Notes: generated from the letters alone by a model not told the origin. Numbered from the stretch's first letter, positions 1 to 63,227 are shown. The stretch is 64,000 nt of DNA from Minisyncoccota bacterium (GCA_018063165.1 JAGOQU010000001.1:35809-99808); one strand, 5' to 3'. A program made the numbers and translations.

Positions 1-184
1 TTTGAATCCTGTGGCAACTAGTAGTATTCTTATTGCTCGTGGATGGGAAGATGTATATTTCAAAAAATCATCAGAACTAGTATCTCTGATGATATCTGAC
101 GTTATTAGTAACCGTCAAGATGTTACCAGCGCTGCAAGTATTTTTGTGTCAAGAATGCAAGATATCTACACACCAATAAAATAA
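1..184 (+). CDS. hypothetical protein, C-terminal fragment running in from upstream of the window
   Basis: Open frame from the window edge to a stop at 184; no recognisable motifs. Confidence 0.3.
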   Translation, partial: LNPVATSSILIARGWEDVYFKKSSELVSLMISDVISNRQDVTSAASIFVSRMQDIYTPIK

Positions 185-185
185 T

Positions 186-1334
186 ATGAAAAAAAACATT
201 TTTAGATCTCATTATTTTTTTTCAGCAGTGCTTGCTCTCTTCTTTATTGTTTTTTCTTTCAGTGGTAATGATGCACATGCCCAGATTTCTGGAGATGCTG
301 TTTGTGGAGGTGAAAAAGTTGTTTGGGATGCTAGTCACACAAAAATAATTAGTGGTGCTTGTACTTTACAAGACCTGGTAAAAATTAATAAAGGTATTTT
401 TACTCTTATTATTTCTATAGGTCTTCCTCTTCTTATTGTGTTTATTATTTATAGATTTGTTGTTGCGTGGTATTCTCTTGCTAATGGAAATGCTAACGCA
501 TATAGGGAGGCTCTCAAAAAAGTAACGCAAGCCATTCTTGGTTTTGTTATTATTGTTGCATTAGCTGGTGGTATATTTTTGGCGATGCTCAAATATCTAG
601 GGGTAAAAGATGGATCAGGTGACGGTTTTAATCCTCTTAAATTATTACAACAAATTTCTCTTGTTCCTATAGAACGTGCATATGCTGCGCCGTATCCAAA
701 GGATGCTTGTCCTAATGGCACAGAAGGACATAGATGTCTTCGTGCAGATAGTAGTATTGGTTTTTGTGTTGGTCCAGCTTCTTGTCAACCAATTAGCACA
801 AGTGCAATAGTTACTACTATTTGTGGGGGAAATTTTGGTACAGGTTCTAAATGTAAATCTTCAAGTGACAGTAGTGAAGCTGATGGATATTGTTATACGA
901 GTCGTTGTATAAAAAGCAAACCTGATCCGGTAAGTAACGATGTGATATTAGGTGATGAAGATGCAGGAGGATCAGGTACCCAGCTTGGTGACTCAGAAAC
1001 ACCTACACAAACAGGGGATACGCAATTACCTAACCCTCTTTTTGCAGATAATTTATATGAATTTATTATAGACATTCTTAATACTGTTATGATGTTTTTC
1101 TTGTATCCAGCTCTTATTGGGGTATGGGTGTATGCTGGCCTTTTGTATGTTACAGCACAAGGTGCTCCAGAAAAGTTAAGCAAAGCTCATAAACTACTTT
1201 TCTGGGCTTTTGTTTCTACTCTTATTGTATTTATGACACAGGCTTTTCTGTCAGCGGTTAAAGGAAGTGTAGAAAAAATATTACCAGGTACTGTATCTAT
1301 TCAGTATAAAGATGATAATGAAAAAAGAGCGTAA
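186..1334 (+). CDS. TrbC/VirB2-like pilin-family membrane protein with an internal duplication of the two-helix unit and a Cys-rich linker
   Basis: N-terminal signal peptide (MKKNIFRSHYFFSAVLALFFIVFSFSGNDAHAQ). A hydrophobic-helix/short-loop/hydrophobic-helix unit typical of TrbC/VirB2 pilins follows. After a Cys- and Gly-rich middle region, a second such unit sits near the C-terminus (LYPALIGVWVYAGLLYV...LLFWAFVSTLIVFM). Confidence 0.5.
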   Translation: MKKNIFRSHYFFSAVLALFFIVFSFSGNDAHAQISGDAVCGGEKVVWDASHTKIISGACTLQDLVKINKGIFTLIISIGLPLLIVFIIYRFVVAWYSLANGNANAYREALKKVTQAILGFVIIVALAGGIFLAMLKYLGVKDGSGDGFNPLKLLQQISLVPIERAYAAPYPKDACPNGTEGHRCLRADSSIGFCVGPASCQPISTSAIVTTICGGNFGTGSKCKSSSDSSEADGYCYTSRCIKSKPDPVSNDVILGDEDAGGSGTQLGDSETPTQTGDTQLPNPLFADNLYEFIIDILNTVMMFFLYPALIGVWVYAGLLYVTAQGAPEKLSKAHKLLFWAFVSTLIVFMTQAFLSAVKGSVEKILPGTVSIQYKDDNEKRA

Positions 1335-1408
1335 GTTTTTTATACACAAACTTTTTTGGTATTTATTCTCCTTATAGTGTACACTTTAAAATATAGTAAC
1401 AACACCTT

Positions 1409-2020
1409 ATGAAAAAAATATTCTCATTGTGCTCAGTTCTCGTAGTAAGTTTTTTATTAATACCTACCACACTTTTAGCGCAAGATTCTAGTACTGTTAC
1501 TTCTGGTTTTAATAGTTTAAAGACTATGGTTGAAAGTATTACAACAGGTCTTATCACAGCTCTTGCAACTCTCTTCATGTCGCTAGCAATGCTTGCGTTC
1601 TTTTATGGTATTGTAGAGTTTATTTGGGCACAACGTTCAGGTGTAGAAAAAGATGTAACAAAGGGAAAAGAATTTATGAAGTGGAGTGTGGTAGCACTTT
1701 TTGTAATGTTTTCTATATACGGAATCATAAAGCTAGGACAAAGTGTTATTTGTGGTAGTGGTGGCTGTTCTTCTACAATTGATATACCTAGCATCAAGTT
1801 CAAAACTGGGTCTACCACAGGTGGTGGAGGCAACAATAATTCTTCACCTACACCCGCACCTGTATATACAGGTGGTGGAGGTAATAATGTTACACCAAAC
1901 TCTAGTGTAGTTAATGATTGTATGGAAGTTAGTAATTCTGTTCAATGTAATGCATCTAAGAATATATCTGGCCTTACCTGTGTTTGGCATAATAATGAAT
2001 CTTATTGTGCTGATGAGTAG
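1409..2020 (+). CDS. TrbC/VirB2-like pilin-family secreted membrane protein with a Cys-rich C-terminal tail
   Basis: Signal peptide ending LLAQ. Two TM helices separated by a charged loop (GIVEFIWAQRSGVEKDVTKGKEFMKWSVVALFVMF). Gly-rich and Cys-rich C-terminus. Paralogous in architecture to the 186-1334 protein. Confidence 0.5.
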   Translation: MKKIFSLCSVLVVSFLLIPTTLLAQDSSTVTSGFNSLKTMVESITTGLITALATLFMSLAMLAFFYGIVEFIWAQRSGVEKDVTKGKEFMKWSVVALFVMFSIYGIIKLGQSVICGSGGCSSTIDIPSIKFKTGSTTGGGGNNNSSPTPAPVYTGGGGNNVTPNSSVVNDCMEVSNSVQCNASKNISGLTCVWHNNESYCADE

Positions 2021-2116
2021 AATTATTTATGTTTGTATAATTTCGTAATATTTTTTATTGTAGAATATATTTAGAAATTTTGTATAATAGTCTAAATTTA
2101 CTATACGTAAAATAGC

Positions 2117-2144
2117 TTGACAAAAGTTATAAATAGTGTATACT
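2117..2144 (+). promoter_or_regulatory. sigma70-like promoter (TTGACA, 16-nt spacer, TATACT) upstream of the 2223 ORF
   Basis: TTGACA at 2117-2122 and TATACT at 2139-2144 in an AT-rich intergenic region about 80 nt upstream of the ATG, which has an AAGGAG RBS. Confidence 0.35.
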
Positions 2145-2222
2145 GTATACAGGTTCAGATAGTATAGAAATTTTTCTGTATTGTTTGAAATAAGTACATT
2201 CACAATTTTTAAGGAGTCAGAA

Positions 2223-3071
2223 ATGACTAATTCAGCTGATATCAAAGAGACAATTGCTGCTCGTGAAGCTATTGCGAAAGCAAAAGCTTCTGCTTCATCT
2301 GCTGCAAGTATGCCAGGTTCTATGCCTAACAAAGGCACAGTTCATCCCCAACAACCCATTGTAACCCACGTTACAACAGGAAATGGTGGTAATAAACCCC
2401 CGCATTCACCCAACAAAGGTGGAGGTGGCGGATCATCTGGAAATGGTGGTTTTGGATCTTGGTGGCAAAAACAACCTCCTTTAATTAAAGGAGTTGGTAT
2501 TGTCGTTCTGTATGGAGTTTTATCCTTTAGCCTTAATATGTTCACTATTAGCAATGGTGAACGTTCGAATAATGCTGAAATTGGTATGGCTCTTAAAGCA
2601 GCTAAAGCAGAAGCAGAAATTGCTTCTTTGAAAGAGAGTGCTGCTGTTTCAAAAGCGAGAGCTGCTGAGTTGTTAAAAAATATAGAAAAAAAAGTTGTCA
2701 CTGATACACCGGTAGGTTTACCTACAGACACAATGCCAACTTTTGATTGTCTCACCATTGAGAAAATGGAAAACAACTTTAAAACCACTAACAGTATTTC
2801 ATTGCCTTCTGGCAAACAATATTTGTTTATCAATGGGTGTGCAAAAGTTACTTTTGAGGGGGTTGTGACGAGTCTTAAAGGGAATGGTTATTGGATCTCT
2901 TTTGATTCAATAGATGACCCTAGTGCAGAATATTGCGCTTACGGTGCAAGAGGAAGAAATGACTCTCCAGATGTTTGTTTGGGTTATATAAAAAAACATC
3001 AGTACCTTGGTAAGCCTATGAACATTATTGTTCAAGGTGGAAAAGATAATTTTTTAAAAATAGGAGTTTAA
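2223..3071 (+). CDS. hypothetical single-pass membrane protein with a Gly/Pro-rich N-terminal region
   Basis: AAGGAG RBS 6 nt upstream of ATG 2223 (the track's TTG at 2181 is less likely). One central TM segment (GVGIVVLYGVLSFSLNMF). Gly-run low-complexity region. No family recognised. Confidence 0.5.
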   Translation: MTNSADIKETIAAREAIAKAKASASSAASMPGSMPNKGTVHPQQPIVTHVTTGNGGNKPPHSPNKGGGGGSSGNGGFGSWWQKQPPLIKGVGIVVLYGVLSFSLNMFTISNGERSNNAEIGMALKAAKAEAEIASLKESAAVSKARAAELLKNIEKKVVTDTPVGLPTDTMPTFDCLTIEKMENNFKTTNSISLPSGKQYLFINGCAKVTFEGVVTSLKGNGYWISFDSIDDPSAEYCAYGARGRNDSPDVCLGYIKKHQYLGKPMNIIVQGGKDNFLKIGV

Positions 3072-3072
3072 C

Positions 3073-3474
3073 ATGTCAGAAGAAGTAAAAAAATCATCAG
3101 AGAATCATGGTAATGATCATAAAACAACAGATCATGGAAAGACAGCAATTTCTCAGAAGATCTGGAAAGGTGTTACTATCATGATAAGTATCATGATAGC
3201 TGGGATTGTGGCAGTTGTTGTTGGCGGAGAACTTTTTGCCGAAATAGTTAATTCTTTTGGTCGTTCAACTGAAAGGATTTCATCAGAATTGACTGTGGCT
3301 GGAAATGTGTTCGGTAATTTTGCTGGAAGTATCAGGTCTTGGACTATGTCGATAGCAAAAATAATGAACGCTATCTTGCCAGCAATTTTAGCTGCTCTTG
3401 TTATTATACTTCTTGGGAAGTATGCTTTTGACGAGTATAAAAAGGACAAAGATGGTGGTGGTGGGCACCATTAA
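3073..3474 (+). CDS. small hypothetical membrane protein
   Basis: Starts 1 nt after the upstream stop. Two hydrophobic segments. GGGGHH C-terminus. Confidence 0.45.
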   Translation: MSEEVKKSSENHGNDHKTTDHGKTAISQKIWKGVTIMISIMIAGIVAVVVGGELFAEIVNSFGRSTERISSELTVAGNVFGNFAGSIRSWTMSIAKIMNAILPAILAALVIILLGKYAFDEYKKDKDGGGGHH

Positions 3475-3516
3475 ACGGAGAAAACCGTCAAAATCACACA
3501 GTTCTACTGAACTGTA

Positions 3517-3595
3517 AAGAGAGGTCTTCCTCTCGCACATGCTTTTATCGCATGTTGCGATGAAGTCCTCTCTTTTTATTTTGTATAAAAAAAGA
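3517..3595 (+). terminator. long imperfect hairpin plus T-tract; candidate intrinsic terminator ending the 186-3474 gene cluster
   Basis: AGAGAGG...ACATGC / GCATGT...CCTCTCT inverted repeat followed by CTCTCTTTTTATTTT. Confidence 0.4.
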
Positions 3596-4576: not shown

Positions 4577-5050
4577 ATGGACACAATAAAAGAACTTCGT
4601 GAGGAAACTGGATTATCACTTTCTCAAATTAAAAAAGCATTAGATGAAGTAGGGGGAGATAAAGAGAAAGCAAGAGCTCTTCTTGCAGAATATTCTGCTA
4701 CTCAAGCAGAAAAGAAATCAGACCGAGAATTGGCAGCGGGTGTTATCTCTGCATACGTTCACTCAACTGGAACTATAGGTGTACTTCTAGAGCTTGGATG
4801 TGAGACAGACTTTGTTGCAAAGAATGAAGAGTTCGTTGCGTTGGCTCATGATATAGCTATGCATGTGTGTGCTATGGCACCAACATCAATTAATAATGAA
4901 GATGGTCTCGGTGAAGAAACAGCACTTATGAAGCAGTCGTTTATCAAAAATCCAGAACTTACTATTGAGCAAAAGATTCAGTCTGCTGTACAGAAGTTCG
5001 GTGAAAATACAAAAGTAATTCGTTTTTCTCGTTATAGTATTTCAGAATAA
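4577..5050 (+). CDS. tsf: elongation factor Ts, short 157-aa form
   Basis: N-terminal UBA-like EF-Ts motif (IKELREETGLSLSQIKKAL) and the core GVLLELGCETDFVAKNEEF. Conserved rpsB-tsf order. Confidence 0.85.
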   Translation: MDTIKELREETGLSLSQIKKALDEVGGDKEKARALLAEYSATQAEKKSDRELAAGVISAYVHSTGTIGVLLELGCETDFVAKNEEFVALAHDIAMHVCAMAPTSINNEDGLGEETALMKQSFIKNPELTIEQKIQSAVQKFGENTKVIRFSRYSISE

Positions 5051-5532: not shown

Positions 5533-6504
5533 ATGATTTTTTATCACTTTCTTTCAAAAAAATATAGTAGTATTTTTTATAGTGCTTGCGCGAGTCTTTT
5601 TTTGAGCTTCTCTATAGTATCAGCCGAAACAGTGTCTGGTAATGGATATACTGTAGATCAAACTATAAGTCCTATATCAGGAATCGTATCTGGTAACGGG
5701 TATACTGTTCAGACTTCTGGTCAAATTGTAGGTGGTATAGCATCTGGTAATGGATATACTTTACAAAGCGTGTTTGGTACGTCAACTGAACCAACAGTAT
5801 TACCTCCTATTGTTCCATCTGGTGGAACCACAAGTAGTGGATCTGGATATTATGTATTACCAGTTACGAGCACTTCTAGTGTTGCAACAACAAGTCCTAT
5901 TGTAGGCAAAGATACTGTTCTTACTACAAATGGTAGTACGTGTGCAACAAGAATAGCTCTTTCTTCTCCTATTGATATTGGTTTAAAGAATAATCCAGAA
6001 GATGTAAAAAAACTTGAAACCTTTTTGAATACATATGAAAAAGAAAAACTTGTCGTAGATGGTATATATGGAAAAGATGATTATCTGGCTGTAAAAAGAT
6101 GGCAGGCAAAATACAAGAATACTATTCTTGTTCCAATGAAATTAAAAAAACCAACAGGTACGATATATACATCTAGTATGCGCCAAATAGAAAGACAAAC
6201 TACAGCATCTTGTGGTCAACAAATTATTGTACACGCTTGTCCATTTTTCAAAAAAACTCTTTCATACGGAGATACTGGAGAAGAAGTTAAAAAAATACAA
6301 CAGTTTTTGAATATTGTACGAGGTGAAAAATTGCCTACAAATGGTAAATATGGCCCAGCGACACTTGCTGCCGTAAAAAGATTCCAGCGTATGTATAGAA
6401 AAGATATTGTAAGCATCGTAAAACTTTCTTTTATTTCTGGAAACTGGAACACACAAACACGTATGAAGGCTAATGCTGTTATTGGTTGTGATGTTATTAA
6501 GTAA
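5533..6504 (+). CDS. secreted repeat protein with two C-terminal peptidoglycan-binding (PG_binding_1-like) domains
   Basis: Signal-like N-terminus. Three SGNGYT(V/L) repeats. Ser/Thr-rich linker. Two copies of the PG-binding helical motif (DVKKLETFLN...DGIYGKDDYLAVKRWQ and GEEVKKIQQFLN...NGKYGPATLAAVKRFQ). Confidence 0.6.
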   Translation: MIFYHFLSKKYSSIFYSACASLFLSFSIVSAETVSGNGYTVDQTISPISGIVSGNGYTVQTSGQIVGGIASGNGYTLQSVFGTSTEPTVLPPIVPSGGTTSSGSGYYVLPVTSTSSVATTSPIVGKDTVLTTNGSTCATRIALSSPIDIGLKNNPEDVKKLETFLNTYEKEKLVVDGIYGKDDYLAVKRWQAKYKNTILVPMKLKKPTGTIYTSSMRQIERQTTASCGQQIIVHACPFFKKTLSYGDTGEEVKKIQQFLNIVRGEKLPTNGKYGPATLAAVKRFQRMYRKDIVSIVKLSFISGNWNTQTRMKANAVIGCDVIK

Positions 6505-7215: not shown

Positions 7216-7908
7216 ATGATTGATACAAAAAAATATATATTAACTTTTTTAATCACATTTTCAATTTTTGTGACAGCTTTTTTTGCGTCAACTTTTTTTT
7301 CTGATAAGAGGGTTGAGAATGTTAAATCAATACAAGATACTATTGCTATTGATATTTTGTCGAGCGAAACACAGTTCGATCTTTTAAAAGAAGTTCCATG
7401 TTCAAATGTTAATGACAGCAGTCTTTCTTCAGAACTTTCGACGCTTGGAGATAAACTTTCTCATACAGAAAATGAAAGAGGGAAAGATGATGATGATGTG
7501 ATCTATCTTAAAAAATATTATTCACTTCTTCAAATTAAAGATTACATACTTTCAAAAAAACTTGTAGAAAAATGTGGAGCAGGGAAGAAGCCTGTTTTTA
7601 TCATTTATTTTTATTCAAATCAAGGAGATTGCTCTGAGTGTACACGAGAAGGGTATGTGCTTACACGCTTAAGAGAGATATACCCCGATCTTCGTATTTA
7701 TTCTTTTGATTATAATTTACCACTTTCAGCAATAGATTCTATGAAGAAGATTTATCGTATTAAAGAAAATCTTCCTGCTCTTGTTATAGAAGATGAAACA
7801 TATACAGGGTTTAAAACTCTTGAAGAATTAAGTTCTCTTTTACCTGCTACACTTAAAATGTCGACAAGTACTATTACAACCTCGACAACTACTAAGACTA
7901 AGAAATAA
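7216..7908 (+). CDS. membrane-anchored protein with a thioredoxin-like CxxC motif (CSEC)
   Basis: N-terminal TM helix. Segment KPVFIIYFYSNQGDCSECTREGY resembles a thioredoxin-fold active site. Family assignment uncertain. Confidence 0.4.
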   Translation: MIDTKKYILTFLITFSIFVTAFFASTFFSDKRVENVKSIQDTIAIDILSSETQFDLLKEVPCSNVNDSSLSSELSTLGDKLSHTENERGKDDDDVIYLKKYYSLLQIKDYILSKKLVEKCGAGKKPVFIIYFYSNQGDCSECTREGYVLTRLREIYPDLRIYSFDYNLPLSAIDSMKKIYRIKENLPALVIEDETYTGFKTLEELSSLLPATLKMSTSTITTSTTTKTKK

Positions 7909-7914
7909 TTTTTT

Positions 7915-9177
7915 ATGATTGACCAAATATTGCAAGGTCTCATGTATCCTTTTCTCTTCTTGTCGATGTATTTTCAGGTACTTCTTTTAATATCTTTTTT
8001 TGAGAATGCAAAAAAAATAGAAGAGGAAGAAGACTTTGAAGTAGAAACATATCCTTCCGTTACAATCGCTGTTCCGTGTTGGAATGAAGAAAAAACATTA
8101 GAGGGAACCCTTTTGTCACTTCTTGATCTTGAATATCCAAAAGATAAGCTGTCTATAGTTGTTGTTGATGATGGTAGTAAAGATAAAACACTTCAAATAG
8201 GTCAAGAATATGCAAGATTGTATCCAAAACAAATACATATAATTTCAAAACAAAATGGAGGTAAGCACACAGCAGTTAATGTAGCTTTGGAATATTCGAA
8301 GTCAGATTTTTTTGGATGTCTTGATGCTGATTCTTTTGTTCATAAAAATGCTTTAAAAACTATTATTGCTTATTTTATTCATCATAAAAATGCTATGGCT
8401 GTCACACCTTGTATTCATATTATGTCGCCAAAGACTATTATTCAACGTGTGCAAGCAGTTGAATATTTGATGGGTGTATTTTTACGTAAAGCATTTGGTC
8501 AGCTTGATGCAATACAAGTAACACCAGGTCCTTTTTCTATTTTTAGAAAAGAGGTTTTTGATATTATTGGTAATTACAAAAAAGCTCATAATACTGAAGA
8601 TTATGAAATTACGCTTCGTATGCATAAACATCATCTCAAGATTATGAATTCTCATAAGGCGCTTGTGTATACAGTAGGTCCTTCTACCTTTAAAGGTTAT
8701 TTCTTTCAAAGATTACGTTGGTCTAGAGGATTTCTTGAAAACTCTCTTGATTATAAGGAACTCTTTTTTAAGAAAAAATATGGAAATTTTGGAATGTTTA
8801 CATTACCAATGGCATTTCTTTTTGTGTTTTATGGAATATACGTAGCATTTTTTGTTACGTATACATTTATTAAGCATTACACACAAGTAATAAGTCAGTG
8901 GATGCTTGTAGGTATACATCCTGGTTTACCCACTTTTGATATTTTTTATTTTAATACCACAATTGTTTCTTTTGTTGGAATGGTAATGTTCACTATGTTC
9001 TTGTTTACTATTTATATTGGTAAAACACTTTCTGATGATAAACAAGAACTATATCGTAATTTCCCATTTTTCTTTTTTATTTATCCGCTTTTTGGGCTTA
9101 TACTTTTTCCAAAGGCTGTTTTTGATACTTTTACTCATAGAAAAAATGAGTGGGTTCTTCAAGATACAAAAAAATAA
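7915..9177 (+). CDS. family 2 glycosyltransferase, membrane-embedded processive type (QxxRW motif)
   Basis: GT2 motifs VTIAVPCWNEE and VVVDDGSKDKT. QRLRWSRG motif. Multiple C-terminal TM helices. Confidence 0.75.
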   Translation: MIDQILQGLMYPFLFLSMYFQVLLLISFFENAKKIEEEEDFEVETYPSVTIAVPCWNEEKTLEGTLLSLLDLEYPKDKLSIVVVDDGSKDKTLQIGQEYARLYPKQIHIISKQNGGKHTAVNVALEYSKSDFFGCLDADSFVHKNALKTIIAYFIHHKNAMAVTPCIHIMSPKTIIQRVQAVEYLMGVFLRKAFGQLDAIQVTPGPFSIFRKEVFDIIGNYKKAHNTEDYEITLRMHKHHLKIMNSHKALVYTVGPSTFKGYFFQRLRWSRGFLENSLDYKELFFKKKYGNFGMFTLPMAFLFVFYGIYVAFFVTYTFIKHYTQVISQWMLVGIHPGLPTFDIFYFNTTIVSFVGMVMFTMFLFTIYIGKTLSDDKQELYRNFPFFFFIYPLFGLILFPKAVFDTFTHRKNEWVLQDTKK

Positions 9178-10404: not shown

Positions 10405-12786
10405 ATGAAATTTTCAAAAAATTGGTTACAAGATTATATAGATGAGACACTTCCTTCTAATGAAGTAATTGCAGATACACTTAACAAAAAAGCGTTTGAA
10501 GTTGAAGAAGTTATTACCCTTGATGACGATACTGTTTTTGATATTAAAATACTTCCTAACCGTGCACATGACGCTCTTGGTCATCATGGTATGGCGTATG
10601 AACTTTGTTCATGTTTTGGTTTTACATTTAAGCCTGATATTCGTGATAAAGAAAATGATACTTTTTTAAATAAACATATCCCTACTGTTGTTATTAATAT
10701 TGAAAATGAAAAAGCGTGTACGAGATTTATGTCTGTGCAGATAGATGGAGTAACCGTTGGCGAAAGTCCTGTGTGGTTACGAAAAAGACTAGAAGCAATA
10801 GGTCAGCGTAGTATTAATAATATTGTTGATATTACTAACTATGTACAGTTTGCACTTAATAAGCCGATGCACGCATATGATGCAAGACGTATACAAGGTG
10901 GTTTAATTGCGCGCTTCGCGCGTGCTTCCGAGTCTCTTATGACACTAGACGATAAGTCGATCGTGCTCGATGAACAAACTCTTGTAATAGCAGATGATGA
11001 AAAGGTGCTTGGTCTTGCAGGAATAAAAGGGGGGAAGTTTAGTGGAATACAAGCAGATACTACGAGTGTTATACTTGAGAGTGCTAATTTTGATCCAGTA
11101 CTTATACGAAAGACTGCACAAAAATATAATCTTAAAACAGATGCATCGAAGCGTTTTGAAAATGGTATAGCTAATAATCTTATTGTTGAAGGTCTTCATA
11201 TGACTGCCAATCTTATACAAGAAGTTTGTAAAGAGGCAAAAAGAGGTCTTGTTACGGATGTATATCCAAAAAAAGACACCCCATACTTTGTTGGTATTTC
11301 TAAGAATGAATTAAATGCAATTCTTGGAACATCATACACAGATGAGGATATACAAAAAACACTTGTGCAACTTTCACTGCCATTTGAAATTATTATTCCA
11401 GAAACATACATTAAGGAAACGTATCCAACACTTGTAGGAGCTGGCTATAAAAACCCATCATCAATGCGAGAAGATGCGCCTAGGGTGTTTAGCTGTTCTT
11501 CGTTAATAAGTTATCTATATAAAGGTATCTGGATGCCAAGTGTCTCTATTGATAAATATGTTTTTTCAAAAAAAATCTCAAAAGAAGAATTACAATTTGG
11601 TGATCTTGTTTTTGCTAATTCAGGTGAAGGAAAAATACGTTATGAATCAGTAGAATTTTTGAGAGGTACAAAAGTGCCAGAAGGTGTTGATCATGTGGCT
11701 ATGTATATAGGTGACAATACAATATTGCACGCAACTAAAATAAAAGAAATGACACTGGTGGAGTCGTTTGAAGAGTTTGCGGCAGGTCGTACTATTGTTG
11801 GATATGGAAGGATAGTAGAAGATTTAAAAGAAGAGAGATATGTTGTTCGTGTACCGTCGGTACGTCTTGATATTCGTATAAAAGAAGATGTAGCAGAAGA
11901 GATAGGTAGAATACTTGGATATGAAAAATTAGTTCCTGTGTTACCACGTCTTAATCATGTAGGTCTTCTTCATAAGAGAATGTATTATGAAAATAAGATA
12001 CGGGAGATATTAGTTGAAAATGAGTTTTCAGAAGTTATTACGTACACATTTGGCAATGAAGGTGATGTTGCAATTGTGAAAGGGTTAGCTGATGATAAAG
12101 AAAAATTACGTAATTCACTTAGTAAAGGATTGCTTTCGTCACTGGCACTTAATCTCTATAATGCACCTCTTTTAGGACAAAAGACTATACAGCTTTTTGA
12201 GTTTGGTAATGTATTTACTATTGATCAGTATTCAGGAGATAAACGTACCAGTGTAGAAAAAAGATATTTTGGTCTTGCTATAGACGATGGAGCAAAGAAA
12301 AGTAGTTTTACAGAAAATGTTGAAATGATGCTTTCTGCAGTTAAGCGAGCTCTTGGTGTAAAAGAAATAGAGTACACTACTATTTCAGCTAAGCCGTATG
12401 TTATTGAACTTGATTTTGATACACTGATAGCACAATTACCTGAACCATCTGTATATGAAAAAGCTTCTTTCGTGTCTCTATCTCCTGTTAGTTACAAATC
12501 AGTATCGTCTTATCCGTTTATTACCCGTGATATTGCTGTGTGGGTACCTGATACTGTCACATGGGAAAGTATCTATACTATTTGCAATAAAGTGGGTAAT
12601 CCTCTTGCTCGTCGTATCGATCTTTTTGATACGTTTTCTAAGGAGATAGAAGGAGTAAAGAAAACTTCGTACGCGTTTCGTTTGGTATTCCAAAGTTATG
12701 AAAAGACACTTACTGATGAAGAAGTAAATGAGTATATGGAACCATATTATACATCTCTTAAAAAAGAAGGCTACGAAATACGATAA
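10405..12786 (+). CDS. pheT: phenylalanine--tRNA ligase beta subunit with an NlpC/P60-like insert in the B5 domain
   Basis: B3/B4 domain (HAYDARRIQGGLIARFA, GLAGIKGG). B5 domain (FVGISKNELNAILG...VRVPSVRLDI). Core (EEIGRILGYEKL). C-terminal FDX-ACB (FITRDIAVWVP...AFRLVFQS). Confidence 0.85.
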   Translation: MKFSKNWLQDYIDETLPSNEVIADTLNKKAFEVEEVITLDDDTVFDIKILPNRAHDALGHHGMAYELCSCFGFTFKPDIRDKENDTFLNKHIPTVVINIENEKACTRFMSVQIDGVTVGESPVWLRKRLEAIGQRSINNIVDITNYVQFALNKPMHAYDARRIQGGLIARFARASESLMTLDDKSIVLDEQTLVIADDEKVLGLAGIKGGKFSGIQADTTSVILESANFDPVLIRKTAQKYNLKTDASKRFENGIANNLIVEGLHMTANLIQEVCKEAKRGLVTDVYPKKDTPYFVGISKNELNAILGTSYTDEDIQKTLVQLSLPFEIIIPETYIKETYPTLVGAGYKNPSSMREDAPRVFSCSSLISYLYKGIWMPSVSIDKYVFSKKISKEELQFGDLVFANSGEGKIRYESVEFLRGTKVPEGVDHVAMYIGDNTILHATKIKEMTLVESFEEFAAGRTIVGYGRIVEDLKEERYVVRVPSVRLDIRIKEDVAEEIGRILGYEKLVPVLPRLNHVGLLHKRMYYENKIREILVENEFSEVITYTFGNEGDVAIVKGLADDKEKLRNSLSKGLLSSLALNLYNAPLLGQKTIQLFEFGNVFTIDQYSGDKRTSVEKRYFGLAIDDGAKKSSFTENVEMMLSAVKRALGVKEIEYTTISAKPYVIELDFDTLIAQLPEPSVYEKASFVSLSPVSYKSVSSYPFITRDIAVWVPDTVTWESIYTICNKVGNPLARRIDLFDTFSKEIEGVKKTSYAFRLVFQSYEKTLTDEEVNEYMEPYYTSLKKEGYEIR

Positions 12787-14702: not shown

Positions 14703-15167
14703 ATGCAAAACTTTCGAGAAAAATACGCGTATAAAGTGAGTCTATATTTATTACTAATTACAATAGCTGTCCCCGTTCTGAACGCGATTCCATATTTTAT
14801 TTCAGGTGTAGATATTTTTGTATTTCCTGTAAATATTATTTATTTTATTTGTGCACTTATTTTTTCTAGTTCAGTTCTTTTACGTATTTACTCAAAAGAG
14901 GTTTCGAAACGTTGGGTGGACGTATACATGTTTCTCGCTGGAGCAATTACTTTTTTACTAAGTAAATATCCTGCGGCGTTATTTATTTTTTGCGGATCTT
15001 CATTTCAAGATTGGGGTTTATATAGTTATGATTGTCCAGGGCCAGATATATTTTATCTACTTTTGATACACAAAAAATCACCTTTCTTATTTTTTATACT
15101 GACCAGTATGGCAAGTATTGTAATTTTAATTAAATTAAGAAAAAGAGAAAATATAATTACTCAATAA
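14703..15167 (+). CDS. hypothetical polytopic membrane protein
   Basis: Four hydrophobic helices; lies between murC and murD. Confidence 0.4.
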   Translation: MQNFREKYAYKVSLYLLLITIAVPVLNAIPYFISGVDIFVFPVNIIYFICALIFSSSVLLRIYSKEVSKRWVDVYMFLAGAITFLLSKYPAALFIFCGSSFQDWGLYSYDCPGPDIFYLLLIHKKSPFLFFILTSMASIVILIKLRKRENIITQ

Positions 15168-15169
15168 TC

Positions 15170-16501
15170 ATGATCAAAGAAATTTATTTACCATATTTTG
15201 AAAATAAGAAAGTTACTGTTATGGGGCTTGGGCTTCTTGGTCGTGGCATAGGAGATACTGCGTTCTTGGCACAGAATGCAAGTGAGGTCACAGTGACGGA
15301 TAAGAAGACAAGCGAGCAACTCGTTTCTTCTCTCGATCTTCTTAAAGAATATACAAACATTACGTATGTATTAGGTGAACATAAATTTGAAGACTTCGAG
15401 AGTAAAGACTTCGTCCTTAAGGCAGCAGGGGTACCAATGGAGAGTGAGTATATAAAGCATGCGGAGACTTCAAAAGTTCCTGTATATATGTCAGCAGCAC
15501 TTGTATGTGACATTGTCATGAAGGAATTACCTAATACGGTAATTATCGGTGTTACAGGGACGAGAGGAAAAAGTACAACAACAGAAATGATTGCTCACAT
15601 TCTAAGAGAGAATGGTTCACATGTGCATCTTGGGGGGAATATTCGTGGTGTAGCGAATCTACCACTCTTGGATGTGATAGAGGACGGAGACTTCCTTGTG
15701 CTTGAGCTCGACTCATGGCAACTTCAAGGGTTCGGTGACATGAAGATAAGTCCGCACATCGCTGTATTCACAAGTTTCATGGATGATCATATGAATTATT
15801 ATAAAAATGATAAAGAACTTTATTTTAATGATAAGGCGAAGATATATCGTAATCAACATGATGGCGATATATTAATCGCGAGTGCTCAGGCAAGCAGTGA
15901 AATTATTATGCGAGGGGAGAGGGTCGCACTTTCTGTGCCGGAACAGCAACATTTCGACATGAAGTTAATCGGTGAGCATAATCAAGTATCTGCTGGTCTT
16001 GCATACGATGCATGCATTCAGTGTGGACTAGATGACGAGAGTATTAGGGCGTCCATCGCAAGCTTCAGTGCGGCACATGGTCGTCTCGAGGATATGGGGT
16101 TATTTAAAAACAATGTAAGAGTTTTTAATGATAACAATGGCACAACAGAAGACGCTACAGTAACTGCTCTTAATGCTATCGTAGAGACATATAAGAAAAA
16201 GCCGATTTTGATTGTTGGTGGCGCTGATAAATTTTTACCGATAGATACACTTGAAAAAACAATTGAAGAAAAGACAAAAGCAGTTGTCTACCTTTCAGGA
16301 ACAGGTACAGACAGAATAACTCTTCCAAAAGAAAATGAATTCGAGAAGTTAGAAGACTGTATAGAAAAAGCTTTTGAGCTAGCAGAAGAAGGAGATATAA
16401 TTCTCTTTTCCCCAGCATTCGCATCATTTTCAAAGTATTTTAATAATGAATACGAGAGGAATGATTTATTTGTGAAAGAGGTTGTGAAATATTCTTTTTA
16501 A
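15170..16501 (+). CDS. murD: UDP-N-acetylmuramoylalanine--D-glutamate ligase
   Basis: VTVMGLGLLGRGIG, IGVTGTRGKSTTTEMIAHIL, LELDSWQLQG. Mur ligase architecture. Confidence 0.8.
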   Translation: MIKEIYLPYFENKKVTVMGLGLLGRGIGDTAFLAQNASEVTVTDKKTSEQLVSSLDLLKEYTNITYVLGEHKFEDFESKDFVLKAAGVPMESEYIKHAETSKVPVYMSAALVCDIVMKELPNTVIIGVTGTRGKSTTTEMIAHILRENGSHVHLGGNIRGVANLPLLDVIEDGDFLVLELDSWQLQGFGDMKISPHIAVFTSFMDDHMNYYKNDKELYFNDKAKIYRNQHDGDILIASAQASSEIIMRGERVALSVPEQQHFDMKLIGEHNQVSAGLAYDACIQCGLDDESIRASIASFSAAHGRLEDMGLFKNNVRVFNDNNGTTEDATVTALNAIVETYKKKPILIVGGADKFLPIDTLEKTIEEKTKAVVYLSGTGTDRITLPKENEFEKLEDCIEKAFELAEEGDIILFSPAFASFSKYFNNEYERNDLFVKEVVKYSF

Positions 16502-16516
16502 TATATACTTAGAGTT

Positions 16517-16891
16517 ATGGAGAATAATAAACAAAATAAAATAGAAAGCATTAGTCAAGGTGAATTAGCAGATTTTATCGTTGTTTACGATAAGTGGAAA
16601 AATTATTCAAATGTTCTTAATGAAGCTGACCATGATCTTCCACCAGATATCCGTTTAGTTCGTGGTTCAAGTGACCCTCAGTATGTAGATGCAAATCGTC
16701 AGATTCTTCCTGCTGCTGCTGAGATTAATAAATTTATTTCCGAATTGGGTAAAGAAAGGCTCGTTGCCGCATTAAAAGGTGCTGGGCGTATGGATGCAGT
16801 AGATACAATTAATTTGTTTACTCAAACATTTGATGTCCAACCTAAAAAAGTAACAAGCAGATTTGAAAAGTTTAAAAAGCTTTTTGATTAA
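16517..16891 (+). CDS. hypothetical protein
   Basis: ORF with no recognised motifs. Confidence 0.35.
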   Translation: MENNKQNKIESISQGELADFIVVYDKWKNYSNVLNEADHDLPPDIRLVRGSSDPQYVDANRQILPAAAEINKFISELGKERLVAALKGAGRMDAVDTINLFTQTFDVQPKKVTSRFEKFKKLFD

Positions 16892-16983
16892 TTAAATTAA
16901 CTTATTTATAAAATATAGCCAAAAATCTCTTTTAAAATAAGGCTAAAAATGCCACTTTTCCACTTTCTTTTGCAACCTAAAAA

Positions 16984-16992
16984 TGCTATAAT
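16984..16992 (+). promoter_or_regulatory. extended -10 element (TGcTATAAT) upstream of gyrB
   Basis: TGCTATAAT about 35 nt upstream of the gyrB ATG in AT-rich intergenic DNA. Confidence 0.3.
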
Positions 16993-16996
16993 TTAG

Positions 16997-19129
<2,133 letters not shown>

Positions 19130-60710: not shown

Positions 60711-63227
60711 ATGGGCAAAATTCTACCTAAAAGAAAATACTTCAAATCAACCATATATCGCCCCAACTTTGATGTCGGTTCCCATATCGATAATGTTAAA
60801 TATTCTTTGGAGCATTTAATTTTTTCTAATGCAAAAGAAACAGAAAGTAATCTTCTTAAAAAAAGAATAAAAATAGTTGCTAGTATTACTGTGCTTCTTA
60901 TGGTGGTTAGTTCTTTCTTTTCTCCAAAAGGTAAAGCTGAAATAGCAACATTTTACCCGACAGCATGTCTAGGTGGATGGAATAATCCTCATCATGCAGA
61001 AGGTGAACCACAAGTTATTTCTAATAGTAATGAAAGTGATTTTGATGGTACAAATTCTGCATTATTACATGCAAGCACAAGTGCTGATATATATTGTGGT
61101 AATTTTGTTGGGTCTATAGAAAAAAATACAAAGCCAGTTAAGATGCTAGTTTCTTTTTCTTGGAGTAAAAATAGTGATACAGCATTAGTGAAAAATATTT
61201 CAGAAGAAGTTTCTTCTTCTACGGATATGGGGAACGTAGCCTCGACAACTGATATTTCACTTGAACTTTCTACAACCACACAAGAAATTAGCACTAGTAC
61301 AGATGCGATACTCACTGGTAGTAGTACAGCTTCAACTACACAAGAGATAGATATAGCAACAACTACAGATATAGAAAAAAAGATTGATGGTGTTTCTTTG
61401 GTTAATAAAGTAATAGACGCTGTTTCGGATGCTTTTAGTTCTTTATTTAGTAACAATAATGATTCAAAAGTTAATACTAGTACAACGACAGAAGTAGGCT
61501 CTAGCACAGATCAAGTAATTAGTAATACAGATAACATTGCTACTACTACAATTCAAATTGAAGATGTAAAAGCGTCTACAACAGAAATAAATATACAAAA
61601 TGAATCTTCTGTAGAAACAAACTCACAAAAAACAGATACTGTAGAAGAGCAGACAGTTTCTCAGGATACCGTACCTGTTCAAGAAATAACACCAACACCT
61701 ACTCCTGTAATACAAGAGGCTAGTGTAGAACCTTCACAAGAACAAGCTCCTGAACCAGCTCCTGTCTCTCTCTTTAATTCTTTAATAGAAAAAATTAGTA
61801 CAGCTTTTGTTAAAAAAGTGTTTGCTGAAGAAATAATTGATGTAGCAGAAAAGAATACACCGAAAGACCTTTCTTCTATAGAAACTATAAACACAAATGA
61901 AGCAAGTTCAACCAGTGAAGAAATGAAAGACATATCTCTTTTAATTCCAGAGATAGATAATAGTTCTTCTACGATACAAGAAAGTACTTCTACTGATGAT
62001 TCTGCATTCTCTACATCTACTGAAGAGATTGCTGAGTTATTTCAGAATGATTTTCTTGAAGTTTTGTATACGTTTGATGGTATTACTTGGTTTAGTCTAG
62101 GAAAAGTTAGTGAACAATCCATGAAATATAGAACATTTGAAATCCCCGTAACAGCTTCTACCTCATGGGAAGATATGAGTAAGTTACAATTAAAAGTTGC
62201 ATCTATTGAAAGAAAGGTTGCTAACCCAGCTGTGTATTTGGATGGTATAAAAGTAGAAGTATTATACGAGTCTACTGTGACACATGAGCATCCTGATTTT
62301 GTGCGTGACACCATTCTTCAAGATGAAGTTGTGGGGAATATACGTATTATTCGTATTATTAATAACGATACAAATTTAGAAGAAATATGGTATTTACATC
62401 AAGAAAGTGTAAGTACAACCACTGTAGAAACAGTAGCGACTTCTACAGATAGTAACGCAACAACAGATAACGCAACTTCTACAGAAGTTATACCAGAAAC
62501 CTCACAAATAATGGATAATGCTTCTTCTACAAATACACAAAATACAAACATAGATGGTATAGCAACAACGTCCGATAGAGTTATCAGGCCTAATAGTTTA
62601 AAAAACACTTGGGTAAAACTCGATGTTGAAGATGTTTCCTCAAAAGATATTACCGAAATTGTTAAAGATATAGAAATAGAAGAAGAAAAACAAGAATTTA
62701 TTATTCCTGATTTTACAAAAGATTTTATTAAAAAAATACAAGGAAGCTTTTTACATGCTGTTGTGGTTCAAATAGAGCAAGAGGGTAAAGATAGTTTATG
62801 GCTTTTTGATATAGAAAAAAATACGGAAGAGAAAATAGATAGTTCAGGTAAGGCAACATTTTCAAAAACATATCCGTTTGGTATGAAAGATGAAACCGTT
62901 TTCTGGTTATCAGAAGATAAAACTATTGTTTTTAGTTATAATGTGATAACAAAAGTAATTGATCAAAAAGAGATACCACCATATGATATTTCTTTGGGTG
63001 AAAGAGGTGTTGTGTTCTTCGATACTATTCCTTGGAAAGTTATCGTAGGATCTGATCAGTTTTCTTTCTTTTCAGAAGAAACAGGAGAAGTATTTTCTGA
63101 TGATAATTTAAATGTTGGGGAGGCTTTTCGTATTAAAGAAAAATTAGATACCATTTTAAAAAAGGAAGATTTAGAGAATCTTAATTTTGTAACAGATACA
63201 ATAACTGACACAGTAACAGAAGAATAA
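60711..63227 (+). CDS. large membrane-anchored Ser/Thr-rich surface protein (838 aa), hypothetical
   Basis: N-terminal TM helix (IVASITVLLMVVSSFF). About 350 aa of S/T/E-rich low complexity (SSTD, ATTT repeats). More ordered C-terminal region. Confidence 0.5.
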   Translation: MGKILPKRKYFKSTIYRPNFDVGSHIDNVKYSLEHLIFSNAKETESNLLKKRIKIVASITVLLMVVSSFFSPKGKAEIATFYPTACLGGWNNPHHAEGEPQVISNSNESDFDGTNSALLHASTSADIYCGNFVGSIEKNTKPVKMLVSFSWSKNSDTALVKNISEEVSSSTDMGNVASTTDISLELSTTTQEISTSTDAILTGSSTASTTQEIDIATTTDIEKKIDGVSLVNKVIDAVSDAFSSLFSNNNDSKVNTSTTTEVGSSTDQVISNTDNIATTTIQIEDVKASTTEINIQNESSVETNSQKTDTVEEQTVSQDTVPVQEITPTPTPVIQEASVEPSQEQAPEPAPVSLFNSLIEKISTAFVKKVFAEEIIDVAEKNTPKDLSSIETINTNEASSTSEEMKDISLLIPEIDNSSSTIQESTSTDDSAFSTSTEEIAELFQNDFLEVLYTFDGITWFSLGKVSEQSMKYRTFEIPVTASTSWEDMSKLQLKVASIERKVANPAVYLDGIKVEVLYESTVTHEHPDFVRDTILQDEVVGNIRIIRIINNDTNLEEIWYLHQESVSTTTVETVATSTDSNATTDNATSTEVIPETSQIMDNASSTNTQNTNIDGIATTSDRVIRPNSLKNTWVKLDVEDVSSKDITEIVKDIEIEEEKQEFIIPDFTKDFIKKIQGSFLHAVVVQIEQEGKDSLWLFDIEKNTEEKIDSSGKATFSKTYPFGMKDETVFWLSEDKTIVFSYNVITKVIDQKEIPPYDISLGERGVVFFDTIPWKVIVGSDQFSFFSEETGEVFSDDNLNVGEAFRIKEKLDTILKKEDLENLNFVTDTITDTVTEE

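Follow-up and report, generated by a model that had tools for sequence, protein, structure and literature searches.

A candidate array of VirB2-like (PF18895) proteins, with a predicted two-hairpin fusion, beside gyrA in a Candidatus Pacebacteria genome

Introduction

The question raised by the locus described here is whether secreted hairpin proteins encoded among housekeeping genes are subunits of a pilus, parts of a static surface structure or something else again. The locus comprises four consecutive genes, denoted w1 to w4, at the start of a 64-kb stretch of DNA (GCA_018063165.1, JAGOQU010000001.1:35809-99808; hereafter the window, whose coordinates are used throughout). The host, an ultrasmall bacterium, is represented by a metagenome-assembled genome (MAG) of Candidatus Pacebacteria (Patescibacteria, candidate phyla radiation (CPR)), and the four proteins are identical to hypothetical proteins of Candidatus Pacebacteria MAGs. 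For this genome, the window and ∼5 kb of upstream DNA (L001) were examined, and related loci are labelled in the same manner (L003 etc.). Our preferred reading, held with moderate confidence and with the family assignment included, is that the region forms the beginning of an array of VirB2-like (PF18895 superfamily) proteins, encoded on the chromosome among housekeeping genes, and that their hairpins are extracted and polymerised by a type IV secretion system (T4SS) encoded elsewhere.

Arrays of VirB2-like pilins in Patescibacteria are a kind already known from work published in 2023 and 2025. Wang et al. (2023) described a series of predicted pilin genes within the essential T4SS cluster of Southlakia epibionticum, and the pilin array is itself essential in that organism (PMC10633639). 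Quinonero-Coronel et al. (2025) searched 3,035 Patescibacteria genomes with a set of models that included PF18895 (PMC12102498): VirB4 was found in 2,417 of the 3,035 assemblies and VirB2-like pilins in 1,948 of the VirB4-positive ones, and of these 1,948 only 1,135 had a pilin gene close to virB4; 441 VirB2 arrays of 2-11 genes, averaging 25% identity, were counted in 383 assemblies. According to the same survey, the T4SS of Patescibacteria is of the monoderm MPF-FATA type, which is normally without pili; its supplementary tables do not include the present assembly or its relatives. New in the locus studied here are a pilin fused in tandem, inserts and tails rich in putative disulfides, an orphan solute-binding protein (SBP) that is constantly present, the interleaved w3-w4 unit with a conserved RNA, and the site away from T4SS genes in a Pacebacteria-type lineage.

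Results

Assignment of w1 and w2 to the PF18895 superfamily

By profile comparison, both w1 and w2 belong to the PF18895 (T4SS_pilin) family at the superfamily level. The whole of w1 scored 28.2 bits (E = 2e-6, in two matched stretches) where the gathering threshold is 26.6, and PF18895 was its top Pfam match. When the two hairpins of w1 were compared alone, unit 1 gave 26.3 bits (E = 7.9e-6, model positions 7-63 of 71) and unit 2 gave 15.4 bits, with PF18895 as the top match both times; thus w1 reaches the threshold because the scores of both units sum. For w2, PF18895 was again the top match, with 21.5 bits for the whole protein and 23.9 bits for the core alone (E = 4.5e-5, positions 11-69 of 71), both below the threshold. 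A first-pass annotation of this DNA had proposed pilins of the TrbC/VirB2 type, to be checked with pilin-family hidden Markov models (HMMs): w1 passes PF18895 and w2 falls short of it, but membership of TrbC/VirB2 proper (PF04956, threshold 27.9) did not hold, as w2 scored 13.9 bits (E = 0.067) and w1 gave no match. The lesser sub-threshold HMM matches were all to small-membrane or pilin families of T4SS, namely TrbC, DUF4134, TcpE and Mbov_0395.

The survey of PMC12102498 accepts a protein as a pilin if the independent E-value of a pilin HMM is <0.001 and >50% of the model is covered, and both w1 (through unit 1) and w2 (through its core) fall within this rule. It further calls an array where at least two pilin genes lie in tandem or one non-pilin gene apart; w1 and w2 are adjacent, hold three hairpin units and thus make such an array. 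As regards VirB4 in the same genome, none was found in the 64-kb window or the ∼5 kb upstream of it (L001). Searches with phmmer connected w2 to the small pilins of L003, L005 and L007 with E-values of 1e-9 to 1e-12, and two of the three matching L003 small pilins (14956-15207 and 16779-17159) pass the PF18895 threshold. In phmmer comparisons, residues 70-137 and 279-366 of w1 both aligned with canonical small CPR pilins (∼105 aa) encoded in more distant genomes. Moreover, an NPL motif ahead of helix 1 and an A-x-G-x-P-E-K...K motif in the loop are shared.

The N-methylation motif (PF07963) of the class III signal peptides of type IV pilus pilins had no match in w1-w4. Type IV pilus pilins were accordingly rejected as an identity for w1 and w2, the signal peptides of which end in A-x-A followed by Q.

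Predicted architecture of w1 and w2

From its sequence, w1 is best read as two pilin hairpins fused into one protein, with a variable, disulfide-rich insert between them. A basic and hydrophobic signal peptide (aa 1-32), ending in AHA before Q, is followed by a putative disulfide loop between C40 and C59, by hairpin unit 1 (aa 63-140; nt 372-605), an invariant AYA (aa 165-167), a beta-rich insert with eight Cys (aa 171-245; nt 696-920), a low-complexity spacer (aa 246-279), and an LPNPL motif with hairpin unit 2 (aa 280-366; nt 1023-1283); the inter-helix loops are rich in K/R. An AlphaFold2 model, with a mean predicted local distance difference test (pLDDT) score of 57.7, places helices at 61-99/105-137 and 290-324/329-365 and strands at 183-243, so that the predicted hairpin helices are 33-39 residues long. 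Unit 1 is best read as w2-like in layout, i.e. a hairpin with a Cys-rich extension, and unit 2 as a canonical small pilin which has kept LPNPL and lost the signal peptide. The AYA lies ∼28 residues past the second helix and, as a speculation, could be a processing site separating the two units.

By the same kind of evidence, w2 is a divergent member of the PF18895 superfamily, with one hairpin and a variable disulfide-rich tail. Its signal peptide (aa 1-24) ends in LLA before Q, the hairpin spans about aa 43-115, a TI.IP.I.F motif is conserved, and there follow a Gly/Asn/Ser-rich spacer and a C-terminal module with four Cys, in addition to the pair C115/C120. Neither protein has the small single-hairpin format of the other array members (about 80-130 aa): both are large, w1 with 382 aa and two hairpins and w2 with 203 aa and its tail, compared with 83-146 aa in the canonical neighbours of the array.

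Searches recovered 58 homologues of w1. In 15 full-length ones, the hairpins are 65-68% identical and of fixed length, whereas the insert is 26% identical and the spacer 13% identical, with a length of 17-97 aa; the Cys count is even in 12 of the 15. A 19-sequence alignment of the w2 family showed a conserved core and a hypervariable tail with 0 to at least 20 Cys. Taken together, the 65-68% identity of the hairpins versus 13-26% in insert and spacer, and the hypervariable tails of w2, point to a conserved core with fast-evolving exposed parts. The Cys counts of the mature proteins are even (10 in w1, 6 in w2 and 4 in w3), and all of these Cys lie in predicted extracytoplasmic segments. When the Cys-rich tails of homologues were compared with Pfam, only sub-threshold matches to eukaryotic Cys repeats were returned, and a tblastn search of w2 against 72,556 plasmids gave no match. 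One homologue of w2 (P0063) is publicly named 'succinate dehydrogenase/fumarate reductase cytochrome b subunit', very likely a mis-annotation arising from the hydrophobic hairpin.

The layout given in the first-pass annotation for both proteins (signal peptide, two hydrophobic helices and a short charged loop) describes w2 well; w1 has the signal peptide and the basic loops, but four long helices in two hairpins. Similarly, a Cys-rich tail is present in w2, while the Cys-rich part of w1 is an internal insert between the hairpin units. Of the many CxxC/CG motifs claimed for both, CxxC occurs in neither w1 nor w2, and the Cys spacings range from x4 to x19.

Genomic context of the cluster

In every related locus the gene order is gyrA, small genes, a methyltransferase gene, the SBP gene, w1, (an extra small pilin gene), w2, w3, w4, two to three small pilin genes and glyS, and this order is conserved in more than 10 loci, including those whose homologue shares only a quarter of the length of w1. 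Among the genomes with this cluster are GCA_017992935.1, GCA_021734745.1, GCA_964637335.1, GCA_013565695.1 and GCA_039805745.1. In the window, rpsB-tsf stands in place of the distal pilin genes and glyS. The position of the cluster between gyrA and glyS or rpsB is kept across species with only 40-50% protein identity. Moreover, in the more distant contigs L021 (1604-3013) and L022 (3565-5099), gyrA is immediately followed by four genes for small PF18895-like pilins (∼95-113 aa), and these by a PrsW protease gene and leuS; a gyrA-linked pilin array therefore predates the additions of the SBP gene, w1, w3 and w4. L022 is labelled Aenigmatarchaeota, has genes like those of the CPR contig L021 and is probably a mis-binned contig. 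In L011, and in this relative only, a genuine type IV pilus pilin gene (7502-8050; N_methyl, FTLIELLVV) lies between gyrA and the methyltransferase gene.

The GC fraction of the cluster is 0.35, the same as in the rest of the window, and housekeeping genes are found elsewhere in the window (rpsB, a short tsf, pheS/pheT, mur ligases, gyrB, thrS, an SMC-like gene, RNase R, ftsE/ftsX and others). The open reading frames (ORFs) of at least 500 aa encode PheT, GyrB, ThrRS, an M3 peptidase, an SMC-like protein, RNase R, a histidine kinase, a Pif1 helicase and a Ser/Thr-rich protein without a Pfam match. These large ORFs are thus housekeeping, or without Pfam match and without ATPase motif, and the statement that the window holds no VirB4/VirD4 ATPases stands, since none is among the ORFs of this size; no VirB4- or coupling-protein-sized ATPase gene was found in the window, in which relaxase and integrase genes were not specifically searched for. 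The earlier suggestion of an episymbiont-type organism rather than a conjugation apparatus agrees with the Pacebacteria MAG, with the housekeeping synteny, with the above result on ATPase genes (relaxase again not searched for) and with the VirB2-like arrays already described in Patescibacteria.

The SBP gene and the transcription units

The coding sequence that ends just upstream of w1 in the window is the 3′-end of an SBP gene, which was found in full at L001 3664-4956. The encoded protein (430 aa) is N-terminally membrane-anchored, scores 66.5 bits against SBP_bac_1 (Pfam) and distantly matches trehalose/maltose-binding proteins in the PDB (MalE/TMBP-like), and its fragment in the window matches the SBPs of related loci with E-values of 1e-18 to 1e-33. 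An ATP-binding cassette (ABC) importer was considered and rejected: the neighbours of the SBP gene are the methyltransferase gene and w1, with no adjacent permease or ATPase genes, and apart from ftsE/ftsX at 54-55.7 kb the window has no ABC genes.

The stop codon of the SBP gene lies 1 nt ahead of the w1 ATG (junction ...AAATAAT/ATG), and no Shine–Dalgarno sequence precedes w1; hence the first operon starts outside the window. The 5′ boundary of the cluster is therefore not the promoter that the first-pass annotation proposed. A conserved TATACT lies 12-17 nt ahead of the SBP start codon in seven loci (L001 3640-3663, L003, L005, L007, L009, L010 and L011), which suggests that the transcript is leaderless or has a very short leader. 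The SBP promoter and the promoter ahead of the distal pilins both have a T(T/A)TCC(C)CA(C/A) motif upstream of them.

Within the spacer between w1 and w2, a TGTACACTTTA block is common to the window, L003 and L009, with ATACACTTTG in L010, and it is absent in L005. A promoter-like site in this spacer, matching the consensus at 8 of 12 positions, is a weak candidate for a promoter of w2. The best promoter-like site of the region lies between w2 and w3 and matches the consensus at 11 of 12 positions. Across the region such sites are not in excess (18 versus 15.2 in shuffled sequence), but a perfect TTGACA and a matching T-A-n-n-n-T −10 element are found at the equivalent position in all eight of the loci compared, and for this reason the site is accepted as the putative internal promoter of w3-w4. 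The promoter proposed in the first-pass annotation is thus a good one, although it is internal and does not bound the cluster. Accordingly, the sequence features argue for at least two transcription units, SBP-w1(-w2) from upstream of the window and w3-w4 with its own conserved promoter and terminator RNA.

A conserved RNA at the 3′-end of w3-w4

The ∼105 nt after the w4 stop codon are conserved at the nucleotide level across seven loci, far above the conservation of the w4 protein. Ten distinct copies of this RNA were collected (Table 1), each directly 3′ of a w4-like gene of the same cluster; seven came from related loci and three from a pattern scan of metagenomes, in which 3 of 120 stretches matching the RNA core pattern were real copies and the other 117, without the 3′ half, were chance matches.

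Three hairpins make up the RNA. P1 (3475-3488) is a 4-bp hairpin, ACGG-AGAAAA-CCGT, with the loop AGnnAA, and is followed by an A-rich linker. Its covariation is strong: 85% of the alignment cells are paired versus 55% after shuffling, with 13 double changes versus 4.8, which none of 500 shuffles reached, and slid registers gave far lower values. P2 (3498-3515) is a variable hairpin. P3 (3518-3572) is a long hairpin with invariant GAGAGG, CCUCUCGCACA and GCGA blocks and is followed by a U-run (3573-3582); together they give a folding free energy of −33.4 kcal/mol (z = −5.9), and UUUUUAUUUU comes directly after. The outer and inner arms of P3 (AGAGAGG/CCUCUCU and UCGC/GCGA) and CCUCUCGCACA are invariant, which indicates constraint at the level of sequence and is uninformative on pairing. 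The middle stem differs between loci yet remains complementary (own versus permuted partners, p ∼0.001), and in L015 and L018, where the copies have diverged, compensatory changes preserve the hairpin. Pairs of P3 were counted in an alignment to which an artificial 3′ anchor, GCGTACGATCGGCTAACGTC, was added solely to anchor MAFFT. A local GAGAGG/CCUCUC hairpin, proposed by RNAalifold on the plain MAFFT alignment, was rejected as misleading, the 3′-ends being misaligned there.

In all 10 copies the arrangement of hairpin and U-run is the same and is that of an intrinsic terminator. No Rfam family matches the RNA; only tRNAs reach the threshold in the window, and the best sub-threshold matches are chance microRNA hairpins of ∼20 bits. 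No conserved promoter of its own was found inside the 3′-end of w4. We therefore read the RNA as a structured 3′ untranslated region (3′UTR) with an intrinsic terminator, which is possibly the source of a small RNA. The hairpin terminator of the first-pass annotation is present as hairpin and U-run, but is not a plain terminator, being the 3′ part of the conserved three-hairpin RNA. As in other intrinsic terminators and 3′UTR-derived small RNAs, a GC-containing hairpin with a U-run ends the transcription unit and no separate promoter was found. In contrast to them, this RNA has two extra upstream hairpins, P1 with strong covariation, keeps its invariant blocks though the neighbouring proteins are only 17-50% identical, and has no Rfam match.

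w3, w4 and other features of the window

All four genes of the cluster lie on the plus strand, as annotated before (Table 1). The gene w3 was listed from a TTG at 2181; its true start, also used by public gene calls, is the ATG at 2223, 6 nt past AAGGAG, and the protein from this start has 282 aa. Hydropathy bears out the earlier description of w3 as a Gly-rich single-pass protein and of w4 as a small membrane protein with two hydrophobic helices.

In w3, a cytoplasmic N-terminus with a Gly-rich stretch is followed by a transmembrane segment (about aa 86-110), a long helix and a C-terminal ectodomain with four Cys (aa 166-282). The C-terminal 115 residues, with the four conserved Cys, were modelled from three sequences as a small beta-sandwich with pLDDT of 80-89. 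No family in Pfam or NCBIfam matches w3, and only 23 relatives were found among 1.84 billion representative proteins; w3 is thus a lineage-specific single-pass protein with a predicted beta-sandwich ectodomain. An identity as VirB8/PrgL/TcpC, which are bitopic with an NTF2-like ectodomain, was considered and dropped; w3 is not VirB8-like.

The w4 protein (133 aa) is charged at both termini, forms two hydrophobic helices and ends in GGGGHH. Its positional homologues are 17-30% identical and barely alignable; most of them nonetheless end in a Gly-rich stretch and then His (GGGGHH, GGDHH, NDHH, AEHH). Searches of w4 against VirB3/PrgI families (Pfam and NCBIfam, E-values up to 1) returned none, the best conjugation-related match being 16.8 bits where the cut-off is 40, and VirB3/PrgI was rejected as an identity for w4, with weak sub-threshold matches only.

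Table 1. Features of the pilin-like cluster and copies of its 3′ RNA (w3 with its ribosome-binding site (RBS))
Feature	Coordinates	Strand	Basis or detail
SBP gene, 3′-end (last 60 codons)	2-184	+	430-aa SBP_bac_1 gene in full
w1, predicted tandem two-unit PF18895 VirB2-like pilin, 382 aa	186-1334	+	Pfam, architecture
Promoter-like site for w2 (weak candidate)	1356-1385	+	TTGGTA-N18-TACACT, TG in front
w2, predicted single-unit PF18895-like pilin, 203 aa	1409-2020	+	homology to small pilins
Putative sigma-70-type promoter of the w3-w4 unit	2117-2144	+	TTGACA-16-TATACT
w3, bitopic envelope protein, 282 aa	2223-3071	+	AAGGAG RBS at 2211-2216
w4, two-helix small membrane protein, 133 aa	3073-3474	+	hydropathy
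Conserved structured RNA, 3′-end of w3-w4 transcript	3475-3582	+	conservation, covariation
RNA copy in L003	13669-13784
RNA copy in L005	13060-13176
RNA copy in L007	13612-13728
RNA copy in L009	13651-13766
RNA copy in L010	12921-13039
RNA copy in L017	13276-13390
RNA copy in L029	609-721	-
RNA copy in L030	1471-1585	-
RNA copy in L114	39-155	-

Some observations were made elsewhere in the window. The EF-Ts gene (4577-5050) is short, with 157 aa, and shortly downstream of rpsB-tsf a secreted protein (5533-6504) combines SGNGYT-type repeats with a PG_binding_1 domain. In PheT (10405-12786), residues 359-451, which lie between the B3/4 and B5 domains, match an NlpC/P60 peptidase domain (E = 4e-10), an unusual insertion for this protein. 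An 838-aa protein (60711-63227), with one N-terminal hydrophobic helix, long Ser/Thr-rich stretches and no Pfam match, is probably a large surface protein.

Discussion

According to the preferred reading, w1 and w2 would be exported by the Sec system, with their signal peptides cut after AHA and LLA, respectively. Each hairpin would then span the membrane such that its basic loop faces the cytoplasm, while the Cys-rich parts would lie outside and be oxidised to disulfides. Subsequently, the hairpin cores would either be drawn from the membrane and polymerised by an MPF-FATA-like T4SS, encoded elsewhere by ∼80% of Patescibacteria, or be kept as a membrane platform; with either fate, the fast-evolving Cys-rich modules would be exposed for contact with a host cell or a substrate. 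The SBP, w3 and w4 would be lineage-specific envelope partners.

Several results count against pilins extruded by a T4SS. The PF18895 scores are at or below the threshold. Direct comparison of unit 1 with unit 2 by hhalign gave no significant likeness (E = 0.07), and because of this the support for a duplication in w1 comes through third-party small pilins only. A profile search of the PDB with the w1 family returned only chance haemoglobin matches and no solved pilin, and Foldseek with the low-confidence w1 model (pLDDT 57.7) found nothing in the PDB with E <1, only generic helical hairpins. Neither the 64-kb window nor the 10 kb around the cluster in any of at least eight related loci yielded a T4SS gene (VirB4, VirB6, VirB3/PrgI or the type IV coupling protein). 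No tandem-fused VirB2-like pilin, nor one with a 75-140-residue appendage, is known to polymerise. Moreover, a pilus of PF18895 proteins has been demonstrated in no Patescibacterium, and the wording of a 2025 review goes no further than a 'potential to elaborate conjugative pili' (PMC12857230).

The closest comparison is with the known arrays of Patescibacteria, i.e. SEML1_0006-0019 of Southlakia epibionticum, the 'Sec-secreted array' of Nanosynbacter lyticus TM7x and those of PMC12102498. Phylum, PF18895, and tandem divergent paralogues with signal peptides are common to both; the present array is likewise chromosomal, passes the inclusion rule of the survey, and no VirB4- or coupling-protein-sized ATPase was found with it (relaxase was not searched for). 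It differs from them in that it is not beside virB4 or other T4SS genes and follows gyrA, a methyltransferase gene and the SBP gene; in its two-hairpin fusion, disulfide-rich inserts and tails, interleaved w3 and w4 and conserved 3′ RNA; and in its Pacebacteria-type host, the arrays of the survey being most abundant in Microgenomatia and Saccharimonadia.

With the VirB2/TrbC/TraA pilins (PF04956), w1 and w2 have in common the signal peptide, two long hydrophobic helices, a short basic loop, and both termini predicted to be outside, where appendages could be displayed. Unlike those pilins, however, w1 and w2 are far below the PF04956 threshold, gave no match to solved pilins in the profile search or, with the low-confidence w1 model, in the fold search, are larger (382 and 203 aa), have no adjacent virB3/virB4 and belong to a monoderm host. 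The hairpin proteins of monoderm conjugation systems (Mbov_0395/MMCAP2_0565 of the Mycoplasma integrative conjugative element, TcpE of pCW3 and DUF4134 of Bacteroides) also form a two-helix hairpin, and w1, w4 and related small pilins give weak sub-threshold matches to them; those proteins, in contrast, are encoded inside mobile elements beside VirB4, and all matches are well below the curated cut-offs.

Possible, though doubtful, is a static module for surface display or nutrient capture that is independent of any T4SS, in which the hairpins anchor or form a platform for the disulfide-rich modules, with the MalE-like SBP and the beta-sandwich of w3, on a cell scavenging from its host or surroundings. 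The translational coupling of the SBP gene to w1 and its synteny in every locus would fit such a module, as would the fact that T4SS genes are near the cluster in no locus, and VirB2 pilins that polymerise do not typically have large appendages or a tandem fusion. However, the hairpin cores are of the same superfamily as the small pilins encoded together with virB4 in many Patescibacteria (PMC12102498), a simple anchor would require neither the length (33-39 residues) nor the much higher conservation of the core helices, and the SBP has no permease or ATPase partner.

It is quite improbable that w1 and w2 are integral-membrane accessory subunits of a monoderm T4SS channel (TcpE/PrgF-like) rather than extruded pilins. 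The pilus-less MPF-FATA type of the Patescibacteria T4SS (PMC12102498) and the weak TcpE match of w1 unit 2 (E = 0.074) would agree with channel subunits, but this match is far below the threshold and PF18895 always scores higher; furthermore, proteins exposed at the surface would be expected, more than channel subunits, to have cleavable signal peptides and hypervariable exposed modules.

We consider it very improbable that the proteins are unrelated small polytopic membrane proteins which match a short hydrophobic Pfam model because of their composition. Scores near or below the threshold, two units that are not significantly alike and the lack of a structural match are what such an artefact would give, but PF18895 is the top match for three independent hairpins and for many homologues, the motifs agree (NPL ahead of helix 1, A-x-G-x-P-E-K...K within the loop), phmmer E-values to bona fide members go down to 1e-12, and the array contains further PF18895 genes. 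Finally, a remnant of an integrated conjugative element, suggested by the naming of these proteins after conjugation systems, is scarcely credible, given that no VirB4- or coupling-protein-sized ATPase gene was found (relaxase and integrase genes not being specifically searched for), that the GC fraction of 0.35 matches that of the window, and that the gyrA-glyS/rpsB position is conserved across species with 40-50% protein identity.

A bolder model, which we regard as unlikely, combines several of these features into a T4SS-unlinked surface organelle beside gyrA, built of a tandem pilin with a variable insert and a co-translated orphan SBP, together with a w3-w4 unit whose 3′UTR-derived regulatory RNA or protein-binding element would coordinate expression of the array.

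VirB2-like pilins are the oddest feature of the Patescibacteria T4SS, which is otherwise of a pilus-less monoderm type, and without which the one organism tested cannot grow as an epibiont. The cluster shows that conserved arrays of the pilin superfamily can also lie far from any T4SS gene, that members of such arrays can, on the predicted architecture of w1, fuse into a two-hairpin protein, and that the conserved hairpin core carries rapidly diverging, putatively disulfide-rich modules, as would be expected for recognition of a host or a substrate. The constant partnership with an orphan SBP and the conserved 3′ RNA provide testable handles on expression of the array and on binding. The overall picture of Patescibacteria pilins is unchanged by this locus; it is extended within one narrow lineage, the w1 family being carried by 11 of ∼186,000 species representatives.

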